A stretch of DNA of 64,000 bases from the NCBI GenBank assembly GCA_001938485.1, contig MQRK01213816.1:1-64000 (forward strand). Reading direction: 5' to 3'. Under the pieces are notes generated by a model. It searched no databases. It was not told where the DNA came from and was given only the letters and a program-made list of their open reading frames with translations. The translations under genes and the position numbers were made by a program. How positions within the stretch are numbered: the stretch's first letter is position 1; the number at the start of each line of letters is the position of its first letter. Of the stretch, positions 8,366 to 36,561 are shown one piece after another. Source of the stretch: Girardia tigrina (Eukaryota).

Positions 8366-9780
8366 TTGATTTATTTCAAGAAACAGTTTATTCTAGATAC
8401 AGACGCTAGTTTTGACAGCATAGGGGTGGTACTATTGCAAATAGGTGAATCAGGCAAGGAGCAAGTAATAGCATATGGATCACATTCAATGTCAGCATAC
8501 AAAAAAAGATATTGCATAAAAAGAAAAGAACTTTTGGTAATTTTTTACTTCTGCCAACATTTCAATCATTACTTTTACGTGAAAAAATTTAAACTGAGAG
8601 CGGACGATAATGCTATAACGTTCATGTTTCATACAAAGAAACCATTAACGTCTCAATTCCAAACGTGGATGAATTACTTGAGCAGTTTAGATATAAAAAT
8701 AGAATACAGTAAAGGAGAACTATACAACAACGCGGATATACTATCCAGACGAAATTGCGACACGTGCACCCAGTGTTAAATGGAACATGAAGAAGCTAAA
8801 AGGGTAAGAATAAGACTAGATTGTTAGTATTGACTACAATAAGCCAAGTGAGAGCAGGTCAAAAAGAATGGGTACCAAAAGAAAAACGGAATGATTTAAT
8901 CATACAGACAAATAGATTATTATGTCATGCAGGAGTAGAAAAAAGTATATGAATATCTAAGGAACAAGTTTTATATGGAGGAAGAAAAGAAAACAGTTAA
9001 GGAGGTAGTCGGAACATGTATAGAGCGCCAACAAACAAAGACAATGACCACGAAGACAAAGGAAGAAAACGTTAAAATAACAGCGTCAGAAATATTTGAA
9101 AAGGTTTATATAGATATATGTGAACTGTGGCATGAGACAGTAAGAAGAGAAAGATACACTCTCGGAATGAGAGGTCACTTTTGCAAGTATATCAGCTTGA
9201 TGGCAATCAAGAGACAGGACGAAGAAACAATTGTACAAACAATATTAGAAAAATGGATATTAAAATTTGATGCACCAAAGGAGATACATGTTGATTGTAG
9301 TAAGAGTTTCGAGGCGAAAAAAGTTAGAGAAATGTTGGAAAATAAAGGCGTTAAAATAATTTTCTCCAGTCCATACCACCACAATACAAATTGAATAATC
9401 GAAAGACAATTTAGGACCATTCGAGAATTCATTCAAGCTAGTTTAAAAGAAAGGAATGCCATGAGTTTGGCAGATATATTACCAGAAGTGGAATTCGTAT
9501 AAAACGCATCAAAACAAAAAACAATAGGGTGCAGTCCAGCGGAATTTGTGTTTGGTAAGAAAATAGACAGACAGCAGTGGTACAGTGAAAGCAAAATAGA
9601 CTGAGATGATACAAGACAAAGAATAAAAGAAAAGAACATCCCGGAAGGAAATGAGACCATAAGAGTATACAACGTTGGAGATATGGTCTGGATATAGAAG
9701 GAAATAAAAACAAAAGGCGAAGACAGATTTGAGGGACCATATGAAATCATAGAAAAGATTCATGATATGAGATATAGGCT
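8366..9780 (+). mobile_element. Gypsy pol fragment (RNase H - integrase - GPY/F tail), pseudogenised
   Basis: FILDTDASFDSIG, KELL, NADILSR, H2C2 region, FEKVYIDI, PKEIHVD, SSPYHHNTN..IERQFRTI, FEGPYEI. Confidence 0.9.
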
Positions 9781-11990
9781 TATTAAGAACACCAATTTGA
9801 CTTTTTATATTTTTATTTAAACAACAATTTTGATTGTCCTTAAGACAATCTTTGTCAAAACTTTCGTACATTTGCATTCTAAACGAAATTGATTAATGAC
9901 TTAATTCTCATTATTTTTTTAGCAAATGGGGAAATAAATATTTTAATAAAATATTTACTCAAAACTTATTGGATAATAATTAAAATGATTATTAATTATT
10001 TTAAAAATATTAATTTGATGTATTTATTAAATATTATAAAAATTAATTAACTTATTTAAAATGTTAAAATTATTTGAAATTAAAAATAAATTTAAACATG
10101 ACATATTTTTAGATAATAAGAATTCAAATATCAATCAGCCATCTGGGTAAGAGAGACACATTTCTAAATCAACATACACATTCAAACACAAAACATCAAA
10201 CATTCAAATATTCCTCACATACCCCTCGATTTAAATGGCTTTAACCATTCAACATTTCTAATAAAACTTCTTCCATCTTCAAGCTGTAACTTGTAACTTC
10301 TTTCATGATTTCTTTTCACCACTGTTGCGAGACCCATGTAACGGTCATCTTCTTTTGAGACATTTTCCTTCTTAATTAATACTTTGTCTCCGACTTCAAA
10401 AATTTTTCTTGTCTCTGTTTTTTGTTCAACTGCTTCAAATTTTTGTTATCTTCGTAATTGTTTTTCCACCAATGTCTCAGTTTTATTCCAAATACTACCT
10501 GTCGTAGCTTGTACAGTACTATTTAACATAAACTCGCTTTCTAATAAGACTTCTGTCCAATCTTTATGATCTCCATCTTTCATTCTAATATTCAAAGCAT
10601 CTCTGATCGTGCAAAACTGTCTTTCCACGATTCCATTTGTGTTATGATGATATGGACTCCAATAAAATACCTCAACTTAAAATTTTGTCGCCGTGTACTT
10701 GAACAAAGCCGATTCAAATGTTTTTCCTCTCTCTACGTGGATTTCTTTTGGTGGTCCGAATTTTCATATCCATCTGTCCAATAACAATTTTCTAACTGTT
10801 TTTTTCATCTTGACTAGTTGCTGCATTCAGGCTAATATATCTACTAAACTGGTCAATTATTGAAAATATATTGACATCCATTTATATTTCTTTTGAATGG
10901 TCCACAAAAATCAATGTATATTTTCTGGAAAGGTTCATCCGCTAATTGCTTTATATGCTTTTCTTTCATTTTGATTGATAGTGTCTTCCTTTTCTGACTA
11001 TTTATGCAACTTTGAACTATTTCTTTTATAAATTCTCTCATATTTTCCATGTCAAAATCATCTCGGAGGTAGTTATAGACATTTTTACAACTTGCATGAC
11101 ACAAAAATTTGTGCATTTCTTCAATAAAATTTGCTCGTTCTGCTTTCGGGATCCAGTATTTATTATTTTGATTTATGACGATATCATTCTTTAATGCCCA
11201 TTTTCTTGTTCTACCTTTACTTATGTCCTCGATTATTTGTTTTATTTCATTATTATTCTTCTGCCTTTTAAAACCATCTGATTCATCACTTAATTCCAGT
11301 ATTCTTGTTTTAGTCTTTCCTTTCTTGGCCTCTTCATGCATTGTTTGACACGAATTGCATAGTTCGCACGAATTTCTTGACATTGCATCAGCGTTTGAAT
11401 GTTTTTCACCTTTTCGATATTCTATTTTCATGTCAAGACTACTCAGAAAATGTATCCATGTTTGGAACTGTGGTGTGATAGGGTTCTTTGTAGTCATCAC
11501 AAACGTAATAGCTTTATGATTTGTTCGCAACAAAAATCTTTTTCCATACAAGAAATGTTTAAAATGCTGTGTGAAATAATAAATTGCAAGTAGCTATTTC
11601 CTTGTAATGCCATAGCCTAGTTCATGTTTTTTCATTTTATGTGATCCATACGCAATCACCCTTTCTCTTCTACATTCGTCTTTCTGTGATAACACCGCCC
11701 CTATCGTATCAAAACTTGTATCTGTGTCAAGAATGAAGTCTTTGGCAAAATCAGGATATGCCAAAATTGGAGTTTTAATCATTCTGTCTTTTAGTTTTTG
11801 AAAAGCTTCATCACATTCATTAGTCCAAATCAGTTTCTTATCCTTATTTTTACCTCATAAACCTTCCAATACTTTTGCAAATCTTGCGTAATCCTTTATA
11901 AATTTCTGTAGTAATTTGTCAAGTCCAAAAAGCTTCGTAAATGTTTAATGCATGATGGGCTTTGAAACTTGCTTATCGCGTCAATTTCTG
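9781..11990 (-). mobile_element. Gypsy pol fragment (RT tail - RNase H - integrase) + PPT + partial 3' LTR
   Basis: PILAYPDFAKDFILDTDTS, NADAMSR, FQKIYIDFCGP, ERQFCTIRD. Minus-strand PPT-like GAGGGGTA is followed by TGTGAGGAATA at 10219. The distal LTR end is uncertain. Confidence 0.9.
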
Positions 11991-13396: not shown

Positions 13397-13507
13397 TGTA
13401 AAACTCATTTTGAATTTTAAATAAATTTTCTACTTTTCTCAATTTTCAATAGTTCTATGAAATTAAACTCCGGAAATATCCGTTGAGTATTTTTTGAACT
13501 CTATAAA

Positions 13508-14374
13508 ATGGTGTCAGAAAAAAGAAAGGGCGACTCTGATCCGCTATCAGTTATCCCGCCTGAATACATTCCAGCGATCGAGATTCCAGGCGACGCTGTT
13601 CCGATCGCCGGTACCGATGATTTTCAGGCCAGCGACACAGAGATCGGCACAACAAAAATCGGTTGTTCGAGTCTTTTCCTAGCGTCCGGTACGTCGTCAA
13701 CGGATCACATGTGGACCTTATTTATTCGATCAATTGAACCGATTAAACTCTTCGTTCACATGCGACTAACCAGTCCGGTCATCAACATGCCGGGCGATGA
13801 TTGCCGCAATATTAAACCGAAGATCCTGAACCGACGGTTAGAAATCACAATTCCACGATCAGTCAGTCCGCCCTGTTACAATATACGCCTTCAACAGACC
13901 AATACAATCAAAATTTCGGCCGGTGGTCTTTGTATCGTCGCTTTAATTTTCAATATCCGACAAACCGCGACACACACCGATCAGAATCTTTCAGCTCCCG
14001 GCTCGTCAACCGCTTCCACCAGATATAATGATCTGCATGTCTCACTTCCTGATTCAGCAACCGCTTCGACCGGATTCACCAATTTGAATCTCTCAGTTCC
14101 AGACTTGACAAGCGCAACCGGATCGATGAATCACGAGCAGACCGCAGTTCCACACAAGACCGATCCCAGTGACATTCAGAAGATATTTTTTTATTATATT
14201 AATTTTTATTTAATTAATTTGTATAATTTTTATTTATACTATAATTATTACTATATAATTAAATCATTTGGGTTATATATCACTGTATTGTTCTCATTAA
14301 GAGATAGCGACCCCAGGGGGAAAATATTTATGCTCAATATTTACCGACACACTTACTTACCGTCAAAAAAATAA
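13508..14374 (+). CDS. ORF0 of the LTR element (288 aa, unknown function)
   Basis: Long open frame in AT-rich DNA, same frame as gag. Contains three ~16-17-aa S/T-rich repeats and a hydrophobic F/Y/I/L stretch. Confidence 0.55.
   Translation: MVSEKRKGDSDPLSVIPPEYIPAIEIPGDAVPIAGTDDFQASDTEIGTTKIGCSSLFLASGTSSTDHMWTLFIRSIEPIKLFVHMRLTSPVINMPGDDCRNIKPKILNRRLEITIPRSVSPPCYNIRLQQTNTIKISAGGLCIVALIFNIRQTATHTDQNLSAPGSSTASTRYNDLHVSLPDSATASTGFTNLNLSVPDLTSATGSMNHEQTAVPHKTDPSDIQKIFFYYINFYLINLYNFYLYYNYYYIIKSFGLYITVLFSLRDSDPRGKIFMLNIYRHTYLPSKK
13509..13519 (+). promoter_or_regulatory. Primer binding site (tRNA-Leu type)
   Basis: TGGTGTCAGAA lies 3 nt after the 5' LTR end and matches the common Gypsy tRNA-Leu PBS. 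Confidence 0.75.
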
Positions 14375-14486
14375 TGTTCTTAAGTGGTATGAGGACGACA
14401 TGAACTATAATTTCACTCATAATATCCATCATTGCGATCAAATTGATCAATCAATCGGTAAATACTCCTCCATGAAATTAAACAAG

Positions 14487-14710
14487 AACATTTTTATCAC
14501 CATAAGGGGCTTTGCAGATCTCTCTCATAAGATTTTCACGGTCAATATCAAGTCCCCAGTGGCTGATCTCATTGTCATCCTTGAGACCCTGACAGGATCC
14601 CCATTATACTTATTACATGGGTTTAAGCCCTTCGTCCGCACCTCACTTGGAGCCAGTATAACATCATTAGCGATACTGCGGTTAATTGCCAATCTACAAT
14701 ACTGGGGGGT
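14487..14710 (+). pseudogene. Ubiquitin-like domain (75 aa, C-terminal LGG) upstream of and in frame with Gag; one frameshift at ~14628
   Basis: Reconstruction NIFITIRGFADLSHKIFTVNIKSPVADLIVILETLTGSPLYLLHGFKP/LRPHLTWSQYNIISDTAVNCQSTILGG aligns to ubiquitin (GxP, L..xK.L, T.S.YNI, LxGG-like end). Confidence 0.7.
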
Positions 14711-14827
14711 AGTGATGAACCCACCGATTTTAAAAGCCAACCGGTTTCCAACACCAGCGCTCTAACGATCGCACCGCCGACTTTTTTCACCGATCAGACC
14801 AGTTCACCAAAGGTCTGACTTGAGCTA

Positions 14828-15817
14828 ATGGACTTTAGGTTCAAGAGCATGTGGATCAAGGTGCAGCACGCCCTATTTCAACATCTGCTCGGAACCATTC
14901 AGACAGATCAGCTCCAAGCCATAGTACCTCACCTTACTGAGATTTTGCAACATTCGGAGCCCTACAATCAACTTCGAAAACGCATTATGATGGCTCACGA
15001 AACGACATTGGATGTCGTCTTTGAAAATTATTTCAAGACGCAGAAAATCGATCTCACCAAGCCATCCCAGTTTCTACAACGAGTCATCAGTGATCTGGAG
15101 TTGATCCAACCAGAGATCACACAGGATAAAAACAGTGCAATTTTGAAGAAATTCTTCATTCAATCGCTTCCGCCGATGCACAAGGCCATTTTTGCAGTCA
15201 CGAGCACTACCGATTTGCAAGAATTGGCAGGAATGGCCGACAGAATCTCCGAAACAGTGTCATCAAGTTCAGATACTAGTTTCAATGTTGCCACACCAAT
15301 CGCCGATAACACCGGTCCGAGTTCGGCTACACAACAAAGCTCACAAATTGCTGCACTGATAGCCCAGGTGGCCCAAATGGCCACAATAATGACCGAGCTA
15401 ACAGCAACCGTAGAATCACTAACAAGAAAAACAAATGATGAATGGCACGGACAATCCAGTAGTTGTCCTAACAGCAGGAACAGTTCCACAACCAGTCGAC
15501 AACTACTCTGCTATTACCATCAAAAGTTCAGGACACAGGCCAGAAAGTGCCAACCTGTATGTGAATGGAAGGGCGACCGGACGACATTAGAGATGAAAAA
15601 CATGTGTACTTTTCATTCTAAGCATGCCGATCGATCCAGATCATGCGCTAATGTTTGCAAGTACCAGCCGATAAAAAAACTGAGTTCCTCTTCGGTTTTT
15701 GCAACTGACTCAGAAGATACCAACAATTTATGCGGCATTTTCACGTACGAGTCTACCATCGACAGTCATACCACTAATATCACATCATTCTTGGCAGACA
15801 CTGGATCTGCAATATGA
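14828..15817 (+). CDS. gag: Gag (CsRN1/Mag-type) running into protease
   Basis: EPYNQLRKRI, KPSQFL, FIQSLP, LAGMADRI; two CxxH...C...C knuckles (CYYHQKF..ARKC..VC; CTFHSKH..SRSC..VC); ends at FLADTGSAI*. Confidence 0.85.
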   Translation: MDFRFKSMWIKVQHALFQHLLGTIQTDQLQAIVPHLTEILQHSEPYNQLRKRIMMAHETTLDVVFENYFKTQKIDLTKPSQFLQRVISDLELIQPEITQDKNSAILKKFFIQSLPPMHKAIFAVTSTTDLQELAGMADRISETVSSSSDTSFNVATPIADNTGPSSATQQSSQIAALIAQVAQMATIMTELTATVESLTRKTNDEWHGQSSSCPNSRNSSTTSRQLLCYYHQKFRTQARKCQPVCEWKGDRTTLEMKNMCTFHSKHADRSRSCANVCKYQPIKKLSSSSVFATDSEDTNNLCGIFTYESTIDSHTTNITSFLADTGSAI

Positions 15818-16055
15818 GTATTACCGCACCGATTCAATCCTTGCAGCATTCCCACTACCAGACAACTCCCAGCCGCAAATCGATTCATTGTTCATACATG
15901 TGTAACCGTTCAATTGTCGTTTTCATTGACATAACTGGACCAGATCTTCAAGTGGACTTTCACCATTGGTGATGTCACACAACCTATACTTGGCGCAGAT
16001 TTTTTAGATCATTTGGAATCTTGGTGGACTGCAGAAACAAAAAGCTTATCCTAAA
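15788..16055 (+). pseudogene. Retropepsin-type aspartic protease (disrupted)
   Basis: FLADTGSAI*VLP...LPAAN...FKWTFTIGDVTQPILGADFL.H/GILVDC; two stops and one frameshift. Confidence 0.85.
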
Positions 16056-16556
16056 CTGCTTTTTGAAGACCCTCCTCACTGCACCAACTGCATCCCACAC
16101 ACAACCCTTGTAATCTCTGAATAATGTTTTACCAAATAATCCGTTAACATATTTCCATTTATCATAGCAAAAGAAGGAAATCGATTTCTCTCTGGTGCCC
16201 GATTCTAACATGCGGTCTAACCATTCTTCAGTGGTCCTTGACAATAAACCGAAGCAGTTTCTCGACTCAATCAAGCCATTAAACCCATCAACCCAGACTG
16301 ATAAACCAAACGAACAATCTTTCCCTAAGTCAGTCATCGATTTAAAAGGTACACAACAATCTATCAATATGAGGAAGCTAAAACCATGCATCCACAACAA
16401 GGAAATGGCAGTTGACACTCCGTCTTCATCCCTAAAGAAACGTTCAGTCTTCTTTTCTCTGTGAGTTCAATATGATGATTCTTGCATAGCTCTCACAAAG
16501 ATTTGACATGACCAAGCATCGTTCCATCATGCTCCGCATCTTTCGTTGGGGGCTGA

Positions 16557-16803
16557 TGTAGTGGTCACCTTTGTAAGAAAAATTTAGAAAATTAATTTTT
16601 ATATAAATATTTATACATATAGATTAAATATATTAAAATTACCATATAAATTATTTATAACACAAATAAAAACAATTTGTTTATTCGAATTACATTTTTG
16701 TGAAAATTTGAATTTTAAATAAATTTTCTACTTTTCTCAATTTTCAATAGTTCTATGAAATTAAACTCCGGAAATATTCGTTGAGTATTTTTTGAACTCT
16801 ATA
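16557..16803 (+). repeat. 3' LTR of the Ubl-gag element
   Basis: Begins TGT after GTTGGGGGCTGA; its last 97 bp match the 5' copy. Confidence 0.85.
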
Positions 16804-32000: not shown

Positions 32001-33009
32001 AATTTAATAATTAAATTAATATTATTAAAATTATTTAATTTTGTAAAAAATTTTTAAGTAATATTAATATTATTAAAATAAATAATATTAATTGAAAATT
32101 TTTCAAAAAGGGATTAAATTAAGCTATAAAATGACTGAAAATGTCTGGAAGCCGCAAAGAATTTCAATGCATATTTGTGGTGAAAAACTAAATTATAGAA
32201 AATTTAAATTGATTCCAATCCGTTTTGTAGATAGAATGTTAATATTTTGTTTTTCAGAAAATATTTTTAAAAAGTCAAAACATTTTTAAATAAAAAATAT
32301 AAAAATATTATTTTCTTCTAAATTTTGGAATTATTTTTATAATAATATTGGAAAACATTATCTTTATTTTTAATATTTTAATGTTAAATAAATTAATAAA
32401 ATTAAAAAAAAGTAAACTATTAAATAAACATTAAAATATTTTCTAATATTATTATAAAAATAATTCAAAAACTTTAAATAAAATAATATTTTTATATATT
32501 AAAAGCAGAATTTGGCCAAATTTAGAGGGCTTCATTGATTTCTTAAAGATTGTATCTAAAAGTGGTCAAAATGGGAAGTTGATAAATTTTAGAATTGGCT
32601 AAAATTTAAAGGTTATACTGTATTTTGAAAAACATGTTTCCGTCTACATTAGGAAACATTGAAAATTTAAATATTTTATTAAAACCAAACTTTTTTTTCT
32701 TAATTTTTTAATTTTAACATGTCAAATATAGTTGCCATTTTATTATTTGTTTAAATCTGAGAGACATTTAGTTATGACCAACGAAGCGTGACAATTTGTT
32801 GAATTGAAGCGATAAATCTTTTTCTTTACAAACGTAAACAAACAAGATCTTTTCACTCAATTTTGACTCAAAATAGTCAGTTTTATAACTTGTTTTATTA
32901 AGTGAAATAAATTAGACTATGTATGTTATTTATTTTTAATTGTGTAATTTATGAAATAAATAAAAAGAACGTGACAAAATAAAAATCTAAAGTCTTTGAA
33001 AGGTACTCA

Positions 33010-36000
33010 CTAGGGAACCTCCCGAACCCGCACATCCCGATTTCGATGAAATTTGCTACATATATAGAACTCACCGCGCTGAATAAGATACATTTGGAAC
33101 CACCTGCTCTAAAAGCCTAGAACTCGAGATATTCGACCTTTTTAGGTTTCAAATATTTTTTTTAATTTTATGTCAAAAGATAAAAAACAAAGGGTGAATT
33201 TATTATTTATTCATCAAAGTCATCACAAAAATGATAATCAATGTAAAAATGATTAAAAAAAGTGGTGATTTGCACCAGGAACAAATAAGAAAAGGTATCT
33301 CTCCGCATGACAACTGCGAACATGTTAGAAGCACATTATTGAAACAAAAATCTGTAGGATTTACAAACCGTTCATAGTCATCAATGTAACCACAACAAAA
33401 CCAAGCATATTTCCAAGTATTGACATATCTTAGAGATGAAAATTGATTATGAATAAGAGAGTGAATTATGATGATTTCATCTCTTAAATGAAGTGTTACA
33501 TTAATCGAATGAAGTAACACAAAATTTGAAAATCTACGATAATAGTTTTTGTATACATGAAAAAAATATCTATCTAAAGGTTGCCACATCCCTGTAGTTT
33601 TAGGTGGAATCATCACGATTTTTAAATTCTTATTCTGTTCTTCAGAAGCCATCCTCAAACTGTCATCATTATAACAGCTCCATGAATCCACAAGCAGAAG
33701 AGATTCTTCGCCAATATTTTGGAGTAAAACCTTCCTTGTCCACACATGTAAATGCGCCTTACCCAATTTACCCGATGATGATGCAAGTAGATAGATGTTA
33801 TTTGGCCTAAAAACCTTTTTCGCAACTTGTGGACCGAACTTTCCTTCAGCTTCTGGAAGAACGAGCAACATTGGAGATAAAAGACTACCACTCGCAGATA
33901 CAATATGTTGAATCGTATATGAATGAGTTGTAGCGTTTATTTGCTGAACAGCCACTTCAACAGTTTTGGATCCACAGGGTGCGAGGGTTCTTCCACTGTG
34001 CATTTCATAATTGAAACCATATTGGTCAGTGTTGTAGACATCTGTAAGTGCCATTTCGGCGATCTTTTTCTTTGTTTCTCCAACAAAGACAGTGGCTGGT
34101 GCGGTCAAAATAATTTTCCCTTAAATACGACATTTTCAATGATATTTTGTTTATTTTTCTCGATACAATCCGATTATGCTTTTTAAATTTGTGGAGCCAA
34201 TGTGATTTCGCTTCAAAATTAAGTAATGATATTTCTCTTGCTTTATCCAATGCCCATCTTCTTAAATCGTTGTCAAGAATTATCATGTGCTTGGCAGTCG
34301 AACCTTTAAAAAAGATTTCAAGTATGCCACCAAACTTGATTAAGCTTTAGAGCTCGTGAACCTCCTTTGTTGACAATATCTGTAAAACGATAGAGTTGTC
34401 ACCTGTCCTTAGTGAAACGAAATCTGTGTTTCACAGTGTCAACATTTAAAAGTTTCATCTTTCCTGATTGCCAATATTCGACTGCAGCCCGCATTTGTTC
34501 AAAACTTATTTCATCAAGAGGACTGCTGAAATTCTCATCATCTTCGACGGAAGAACAAACGTGATCATCGCTATACGAAATATCGCTTGCATCAAATTTA
34601 TCATCTTCAAATTCCGAAGCATCTTGCATTATTAAATTTGATTCGGTAGTAAAGATGATTTCTTCTCCAGTCAAGGAATCGTCAAGAAGTTGCTTGATAT
34701 GTGTGAAGGACAGGCTCACTCTCAAAATTTTTGAAACAATTAATTTTTATAAAGAATTTCTAAAATAAGGAAATATTTAAAATCAAGTTTTCTAAGCAAT
34801 TATAATTAAAAAATATATCTTAATTAATTTAAAAAAATTATTTTCGGAAATTATCAAATTTAATTAATTAATTGTAGAGTAAAAACTTATTTTGAAATTA
34901 ATTGGGAAATAAAGGATTTTTAAATAATTGATTTAAAAATAATATATAAAGACAAGGATAATTAGGTTTGTACTAATTTTAAAAGTTATTCTAATAATAA
35001 AAATTTGAATATTGTAAATTATTTTTTGTATTTATATCGTATTTAAAATTTGTATTGTATTTAAAATAATTGTAGGTAAAAATGATTTTAAACTGAAATA
35101 TTGATAATAAATAAAACGTTAAAATCTTTATTAATTTAAAAACTTTTCCCAAATAAAAGAAAATAACATTAAACTAATTCTAAAATAATAAAAAATCATT
35201 TCGGTTAATTTAGTAAAAATATGACTACAATAAATTATGTTGGTTTTAATTTAAATTAAATTGCAAAAAATAGTGGTATGTAAATTTTCAAAAATAAATA
35301 TAATATAAAATTTCAATTTTAAAATAACTTATCAGTATTTATAATTTCATATTTTTATATAGCAATCTGGTCAAAAAGAAAACGAAGAAAAGTTCCTCAA
35401 CAAACAATTGTTATTAAAAAATTGTTAACTAAAAATTGTTTGAATAATTGTTAATTCTGTTATAAATAAAATTTTGATGTTAATGAGTCTTAATCTCGAT
35501 CAAGAACTCAAAAATATGGACAATTAACTCAATCGGTGTTGTCCCATTCTTCAATCGGTCTACAATATTCGCAATTAATTCCTCGGCCATCTTATGGGAT
35601 AATTCTTTAATTCAAAGATAATTGTTTCTTTGACTTACCTTATGTTATTTATCACAAAAAGGTATGTAGTTTTTACTTAAAAATTAACAAATTGAACACA
35701 AATTTAAATAAAATTTATTAATTCAATAAAGTATTATTGAAAACTAGTACTTGAAATTTAGTAAACAAAACGTATTGATAACAACAGAACATCTTTGGTG
35801 CCTAGGTAATTAAATACGTTTAATAAACGTTTTTTACCATAGAAATTTGCTTAAATACAAACAACACAGCAATATAGAAAAATGCCGCGACAGCTTCGCT
35901 ACGCTAAGCAATGTGGTTACATTGATGACTATGAACGGTTTGTAAATCCTACAGATTTTTGTTTCAATAATGTGCCTCTAACATGTTCGCAGTTGTCATG

Positions 36001-36297
36001 CGGAGAGATTCCTTTTCTTATTTGTTCCTGGTGCAAATCACCACTTTTTTAAATCATTTTTACATTGATTATCATTTTTGTGATGAATTTGATGAATAAA
36101 TAATAAATTCACCCTTTGTTTTTTTATCTTTTGACATAAAATTAAAAAAAAAATTTTGAAACCTAAAAAGGTTCTAGGCTCGAGTTCTAGGCTTTAAGAG
36201 AAGGTGGTTCAAAGTGTATCTTATTCAGCTCGGCGAGTTCTATATATGTACCGATTTTCATCGAAATCGGGATGTACGGGTTCGGGAGGTTCCCTAG
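33010..36297 (-). mobile_element. Full-length Tc4/Tc5-like (pogo group, DD37D) DNA transposon, 3288 bp, ~385-bp TIRs
   Basis: CTAGGGAACC...GGTTCCCTAG termini; TCA duplicated within a CTCAG (CTNAG) target; TIRs 33010-33394 / 35912-36297. Confidence 0.9.
33203..34725 (-). pseudogene. Tc5-like transposase, frameshifted into 3 ORFs
   Basis: HTH region DNDLRRWALDKA..FEAKSHWLHKFKK; VYNTDQYGF, ATTHSYT, LLVDSW, QPLD. 37 residues counted between the 2nd and 3rd D. Confidence 0.88.
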
Positions 36298-36561
36298 TCA
36301 GGATAAATTGAAAGATAAACCGTAAATTAATGCGTAAATAAAAATCTGAGGGAAGAGACTTTATACTTAATAGTTTTTTCTTAAGAGTACGGTACTATAA
36401 GAGCAGTAAATAACTTCTTACTCTATAAAATTGTAATTTTAAATTAAATTATTTGAATTATTTACTTATTTTCATTATGTATATATATACATAGTCTAGT
36501 GAACAATAATTTGAAATTTTTTGAATAGATATGTGTTAAAGCATTTTTTTAAAATTCAACA

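Follow-up and report, generated by a model that had tools for sequence, protein, structure and literature searches.

Retrotransposon Gag proteins usually start at their own methionine and are matured by the element's own protease. Within 64,000 nucleotides of Girardia tigrina DNA (contig MQRK01213816.1, positions 1 to 64,000 of the forward strand; hereafter the window), a candidate ubiquitin-like domain (Ubl) ending in di-glycine (GG) lies directly ahead of Gag. Is this arrangement an accident of one damaged copy, or is it a conserved feature of the element, and if so, what could it do for Gag?

The locus is a broken 3.4-kb copy of a long terminal repeat (LTR) element, located at 13.4-16.8 kb of the window (Table 1). 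RT, RNase H and integrase are absent, and the copy is dead. Most of its 5' LTR has been swapped for other repeat DNA, and past position 13413 other contigs diverge from the window. An ATG at 13508-13510 overlaps the primer-binding site (PBS), and ARAGORN identifies tRNA-Leu(CAG) at two of the fetched pattern matches to the PBS. The leader contains a second frame break at ~14326-14365, followed by a stop codon at 14372-14374. Gag carries a premature TGA at 14816-14818, inside its DUF7041-like domain, and its two CX2HX9CX3C motifs reside at 15509-15562 and 15605-15658. A weak EspC match in Gag, under the cut-off, was taken as a coiled coil. The protease assignment is supported by a Pfam RVP match in a sibling copy (L003).

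Table 1. Features of the LTR element, in window positions.
Feature	Position	Strand	Remarks
5' LTR, 3' end only	13409..13505	+	97 nt, 99% identity to 16707-16803
Primer-binding site (PBS)	13509..13519	+	complementary to 3' end of host tRNA-Leu
Leader ORF	13508..14486	+	subfamily-variable; without Pfam family in the window copy
Ubiquitin-fold domain (Ubl), predicted	14487..14710	+	frameshifted at ~14627-14630 in the window copy
Di-glycine (GG) end, predicted cut site	14705..14710	+	
Linker	14711..14770	+	short, acidic, variable; predicted new Gag N-terminus
Gag	14771..15679	+	DUF7041-like N-terminal domain and two CX2HX9CX3C motifs
Aspartic protease region	15680..16060	+	catalytic motif at 15797; broken by stop at 15815-15817
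Pol-less tail, G-rich tract at end	16061..16556	+	deletion common to L061, L066 and L073
3' LTR	16557..16801	+	96% identity over 246 nt to 5' LTR of L004

Three other copies (L061, L066 and L073) align with the window across all 860 nt at 85-94%. This pol-less Gag-protease sublineage (window 15700-16560, L061, L066 and L073) was itself copied, and the LTRs of L061 are 99.6% identical. Two other features were seen in the window. Decayed fragments of unrelated Gypsy pol genes occupy 8939-11854, with an integrase on the forward strand and an RNase H and an integrase zinc finger on the reverse strand. At 33006-36301 there are also long repeats in inverted orientation, one of 213 nt (98%) and one of 123 nt (91%), spaced ~2.5-3 kb apart; they probably mark a DNA transposon.

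First-look searches of the genome gave 177 and 888 candidates for the family. One full-length copy (L062) encodes RT, RNase H and integrase in the Gypsy order, and its best PDB match is Ty3 Gag-Pol (E 1.8e-76); the family is a Ty3/Gypsy LTR retrotransposon. Members of the CsRn1 clade (CsRn1, PwRn1 and AgCR) combine a CX2HX9CX3C (CHCC) Gag with PR-RT-RH-IN order and a tRNA-Trp PBS (PMC2582038). Our family shares the Gag motif and the domain order, but its CHCC motif is doubled, it has the leader-Ubl-GG module, and its PBS pairs with host tRNA-Leu(CAG). Because the PBS corresponds to Leu rather than Trp, we call the family CsRn1-like and do not file it as a CsRn1 member. The CsRn1 paper makes no mention of ubiquitin (PMC2582038). 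Assignment to Burro was also considered and rejected: those elements exceed 25 kb and have an N-terminal CCHC Gag with cargo downstream (PMC6431247), whereas the window element is 3.4 kb, has CHCC motifs and carries its Ubl upstream.

In the window copy, the N-terminal two-thirds of the Ubl (from 14487) occupies one frame, while the C-terminal third, the GG and the start of Gag occupy another. The original prediction restored a single base to obtain a 75-aa domain whose GG continues in frame into Gag, with one TGA where a Trp would be expected. Natural copies bear out both proposals: the frameshift at ~14627-14630 is absent in 24 of 25 aligned siblings, and a sense codon stands at the position of the stop in 40 of 43 motif matches (duplicates still included). 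The Gag motif is in frame past the junction in 68 of 113 distinct copies that reach it, and in 58 of these 68 the domain ends in GG. The uninterrupted Ubl-GG-Gag frame that other copies were expected to reveal is therefore present in nature; all later analyses were carried out on natural unbroken copies, and a repaired window sequence was unnecessary. Most of the remaining junction-reaching copies carry 1-base indels, many of them in the run of G residues that encodes GG. This run (window 14703-14710) is an indel hotspot among copies, reflecting decay or assembly error.

When copies were chosen by Gag alone, the Ubl was present in 26 of 30, and the remaining four resemble internal deletions. 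In unbroken copies, the ORF that begins upstream at 13508, overlooked previously, reads as one unit with Ubl-GG-Gag. Contigs from four sequencing runs of relatives (three of which are only guessed to be RNA) tile the leader, Ubl and Gag.

No Pfam family, of the ubiquitin clan or any other, matched any of four domains at E<=10, and a single-sequence PDB search returned one match, which was taken as chance. A profile of 45 copies searched against PDB hit ubiquitin-fold chains in 20 of 21 rows, each weakly (E 0.06-1.9). Language-model features (ESM Atlas) placed the domain with ubiquitin-family clusters at 0.91-0.93. An AlphaFold model based on 12 close copies was discarded (pLDDT 53.6). The model based on 45 natural copies reached pLDDT 88.5 and has the order strand-strand-helix-strand-strand. 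Foldseek and VIA-align matched it to ubiquitin, SUMO, FAT10 and ISG15 (TM ~0.7-0.8), with at least 496 PDB chains at E<=0.001, headed by SUMO and ubiquitin. The best structural matches (SUMO, ubiquitin and FAT10) have Z 11.9 and an rmsd of ~2 A, and among viral matches, fragments of pestivirus (BVDV) polyproteins rank top. Sequence identity to SUMO, ubiquitin, FAT10, ISG15 and the pestivirus matches is 12-22%. The Gypsy domain is thus predicted to adopt the beta-grasp ubiquitin fold, as a structure model had been expected to reveal.

The source of the domain was also sought. The Ubl profile matches host ubiquitin weakly (E 0.009, with 1 of 300 shuffles as high) and host FUBI more weakly still (E 0.16). 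FUBI is unsupported as the donor. A Rad60/SUMO search for a donor gave ubiquitin-type matches only, among the 15 loci fetched. In passing, we observed tandem diverged ubiquitin-like units without GG (L331/L332, G000:C236568) and the host FUBI-eS30 gene, which consists of one exon and whose FUBI Ubl lacks the R72-type Arg (L220, G000:C171812).

GG was surveyed across 17 subfamilies, represented by 70 in-frame copies of full length. It is the commonest state in all but two subfamilies (15 of 17), and both exceptions are represented by single copies; among single non-GG copies, 10 of 11 are nearest to a GG copy or have a GG copy within 0.004 of their nearest. All four Gly codons are used at each GG position. 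The dN/dS of the Ubl in 26 unbroken copies, among which synonymous sites saturate, is 0.39, 0.33, 0.13 and 0.15 in bins of rising distance, compared with 0.38, 0.24 and 0.14 for Gag, the pairwise values being non-independent. These data indicate that the Ubl and GG, like Gag, are under purifying selection. The conservation of GG that had been proposed as a check is accordingly seen between subfamilies, despite synonymous saturation. Within subfamilies, GG departs about as often as other Ubl sites (18/102 versus 493/3672), although the first count is inflated by four tail-deletion copies. These four differ from one another by 2-5% and have all lost the same 3 residues, which leaves a shorter tail ahead of GG. 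They were evidently copied, and they may have moved in trans.

Key residues, numbered by alignment to host ubiquitin, were scored in 45 copies. Leu or Ile occupies the L73-equivalent in 44 and Lys the K48-equivalent in 43, whereas the I44-equivalent is T in 22, L in 18, S in 4 and K in 1. Arg is found at the R42-, R72- and R74-equivalents in 0, 1 and 0 copies, respectively, and 11 copies have Pro at position 74. In the 68 in-frame copies, GG is followed by S in 36, N in 25 and G in 3, and by Pro in none. The signature of a cleavable precursor is therefore present: a conserved GG, an L73-type hydrophobic residue, and no Pro next to the cut. The Ser foreseen as the first residue of released Gag holds for the 36 copies only, with N or G taking its place in others, and the columns of the linker each show 3-10 amino-acid states across the 17 subfamilies.

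Purifying selection on the fold and core residues might instead mean that the Ubl stays attached to Gag as a tag for folding, docking or trafficking, for example by recruiting ubiquitin-binding or membrane-budding machinery. Propagation of the tail-deletion copies and a tail devoid of ubiquitin's Arg residues would both suit such a tag. However, the I44 patch is not kept, and an uncut tag has no need of GG; uncut Ubl domains such as that of Rad23 lack it. Gag would also have to bear 190-500 residues of unrelated leader. We regard a permanent tag as unlikely.

A second alternative is that cleavage does occur but that the leader-Ubl-GG piece is the useful product, either a modifier conjugated to host proteins or a decoy for deubiquitinases or E1. 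E1 recognizes R42, R72 and R74 of ubiquitin. Cutting would leave a free GG, the K48-equivalent is kept, and host domains occur in frame within leaders. In the BEL/Pao elements described below, the ubiquitins are 95% identical to host ubiquitin. Against an active product, the E1-recognition surface (R42, R72, R74 and the I44 patch) is not kept in the 45 Gypsy copies, two of the BEL groups have C or N at position 74, and the leaders are near neutral and freely swapped. In addition, human cells degrade such GG-ended products (PMC8013793). Because R42, R72 and R74 are missing, conjugation of the released Gypsy Ubl appears unlikely, and the conjugatable product envisaged by the original prediction finds no backing in these residues. 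An active role for the released piece is a quite improbable reading overall.

The leader itself behaves differently from the Ubl. The median stop-free run upstream of the Ubl is 85 codons in the Ubl frame, versus 13 and 22 in the other two (76 copies). Likewise, the 99 codons upstream contain 182 stops in the Ubl frame, versus 602 and 369 (73 copies). In ten copies, no stop interrupts the frame from the PBS ATG through GG, and their leaders span 190-502 codons. Nevertheless, the leader dN/dS is 0.54-0.87, compared with 0.29-0.50 for the Ubl of the same five groups, even with an alignment filter that biases the leader values down and with pairs that are non-independent. A Pfam search of 118 leader-region frames from 14 loci detected only INTS7_N, RasGEF_N, a weak Frag1 and neighboring pol fragments. 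From the PBS through Gag, two public proteins agree at 477 of 478 residues, yet upstream of it one carries an INTS7 fragment and the other a bromodomain fragment. Such comparisons show a leader that is kept open but is near neutral and interchangeable, and that carries scraps of INTS7, bromodomain and RasGEF genes. What is conserved is the open frame and the Ubl-GG, not the leader protein.

Two side observations concern this region. In public proteins P0009-P0022, a bromodomain fragment always ends at the same residue and is followed by nine different short tails; this variety is expected if the fragment sits in the LTR, with 3' LTR copies reading into different flanks. In L061, L065 and L301, leader and Ubl modules have been recombined onto other Gag subfamilies.

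The position of potential start codons bears on a third alternative, in which the Ubl is left over from an old capture and Gag arises through an internal start, through splicing or through the action of the element's aspartic protease. Of 31 copies, 16 have the PBS ATG in the frame of GG; in one subfamily it is out of frame in all 3 copies. Some subfamilies have a Met shortly upstream of the Ubl, and the elements do encode their own protease; all three facts would accommodate a relic. However, at synonymous saturation the dN/dS of the Ubl equals that of Gag, none of the Gypsy copies read has a Met in the stretch from GG to the Gag core, and the Ubl is kept in pol-less and full-length copies alike. 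GT..AG ends were found at 0 of 15 joints listed from the contigs of four runs, although contigs cannot exclude splicing. A mere relic is very unlikely in our estimation.

Sister families in the same genome provide a further comparison. The Ubl profile matched none of 30 sister DUF7041 loci, and the Ubl-less sister Gags that were read have a Met ~30 residues before the Gag core. The tRNA-Leu PBS is common to these families, and their long "open frames" are N gaps. A Gag tree was built from 26 copies with the Ubl and 10 without it, rooted at the midpoint and with long branches flagged. The label changes once in this tree, and the Ubl-bearing copies lie on one side of a branch with 100/99 support. 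Protein searches with the Gypsy Ubl recovered only P0001, P0002, a weak P0003 and two unrelated repeat proteins, and scans of metagenomes and viral contigs confirmed no locus.

A search of the genome for ubiquitin itself (PF00240) yielded 3445 first-look candidates. Sixty further loci were read, and many are of the BEL/Pao type, with ubiquitin immediately before a DUF1759 Gag. One such element was confirmed by its Pao peptidase, RT and integrase. There are at least four BEL/Pao-type groups (L160-L219 and L326-L338; G000, for example C243682, C236717, C49435 and C215667), and public protein P0006 is a more diverged BEL-type version. Upstream of ubiquitin, their leaders contain Hsp90 or PRMT fragments. 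The synonymous difference between these ubiquitins and that of the host is saturated (0.89-0.94), and GG is kept in 28 of 30 and 10 of 11 copies. The tails read RLCGG, RLRGG or RLNGG, so the R72-type Arg is retained while position 74 varies. In one group, a partial upstream ubiquitin ends in GS or GN (8 of 8), whereas the ubiquitin proximal to Gag keeps GG. Judged from sequence, the ubiquitin-GG at the Gag junction arose independently in the BEL/Pao and Gypsy families. The Ubl-GG-Gag architecture is thus real, old, selected, and present in two unrelated superfamilies.

The comparative evidence lends good support to the idea that a host protease would cleave at this GG. We therefore favor, with a probability of roughly two in three, a reading in which the first frame consists of leader, ubiquitin-fold domain, GG and Gag, and in which GG likely serves as a host-deubiquitinase cut site that frees Gag with a fixed N-terminus. 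Translation would start at the PBS-overlapping ATG or further upstream in the LTR, and a host deubiquitinase would cut the precursor after GG to release Gag. The leader-Ubl piece would then likely be destroyed through its exposed GG end, which would act as a C-degron. Under this scheme, the N-terminus of Gag would stay fixed whatever sequence is captured upstream, and the element could tolerate and spread scraps of host mRNA at its 5' end with Gag unspoiled.

Cutting after GG and disposal of the released piece have precedents in known systems. In pestiviruses, ubiquitin is a processing signal for NS3 that is cut by host hydrolases (PMC8310069). As in our elements, the ubiquitin of cytopathogenic BVDV is captured from the cell, is often preceded by host-mRNA scraps, is in frame, and defines an N-terminus. 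However, the pestivirus cases, with ubiquitin upstream of NS3, arose recently and sporadically as mutants of an RNA virus (PMC8310069), whereas the Gypsy module is fixed across 17 subfamilies, has ~20% identity to ubiquitin and precedes Gag. The closest host parallels are SDE2 and FUBI-eS30 (FAU), in which a diverged N-terminal Ubl with GG is removed by a deubiquitinase and leaves a product with a GG C-degron (PMC13572447, PMC8013793); KLHDC2 destroys GG-ended products (PMC8013793). These differ in being host genes with the Ubl at the extreme N-terminus. USP5 cuts the SDE2 Ubl, which is <20% identical to ubiquitin, and requires an R72-equivalent Arg that the Gypsy Ubl lacks (PMC13572447). Because only one of the 45 Gypsy Ubls has this Arg, and 11 of them have Pro at position 74, USP5 is not assignable as the Gypsy protease. 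Host FUBI likewise lacks the Arg that USP5 needs.

Among retroelements, Burro/GYPSM1, a giant planarian Gypsy element, also encodes a polyprotein with a ubiquitin/SUMO-like domain. In its 4,873-aa ORF, Gag is N-terminal and the SUMO-like domain is internal, between MATH and BCL2-like domains downstream of Gag; the part of that report consulted describes no GG cut site before Gag (PMC6431247). The 2A-like (StopGo) peptides of APE-type non-LTR elements are similar in that a borrowed signal separates a retroelement protein from its leader, but they act by ribosomal skipping rather than proteolysis (PMC3708506). A SUMO-like domain inside the Burro polyprotein and 2A-like separators in non-LTR elements are thus already known. 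Literature listings and the openings of abstracts turned up no account of ubiquitin or a Ubl placed before Gag, although Repbase, Dfam or GyDB may hold one.

We lean slightly towards a broader proposal, that Ty3/Gypsy and BEL/Pao elements independently adopted ubiquitin-GG as a host-cut spacer before Gag. Such a spacer would insulate the capsid, turn the LTR and leader into a free zone for gene capture, and make retrotransposition reliant on a deubiquitinase that the host could control. That Gypsy elements, BEL/Pao elements and pestiviruses share one solution points to a repeated evolutionary trick. The natural series of Ubl tails, with canonical ubiquitin at one end and a domain of 20% identity that lacks the usual arginines at the other, offers a probe of deubiquitinase requirements. 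Cleavage at GG would also account for the changing host-gene scraps carried in frame with Gag, and so would provide a route to chimeric genes. If the proposed cleavage is correct, production of retrotransposon capsids needs a host deubiquitinase, which is a new host dependency, and this enzyme would be a possible control point alongside small-RNA silencing.
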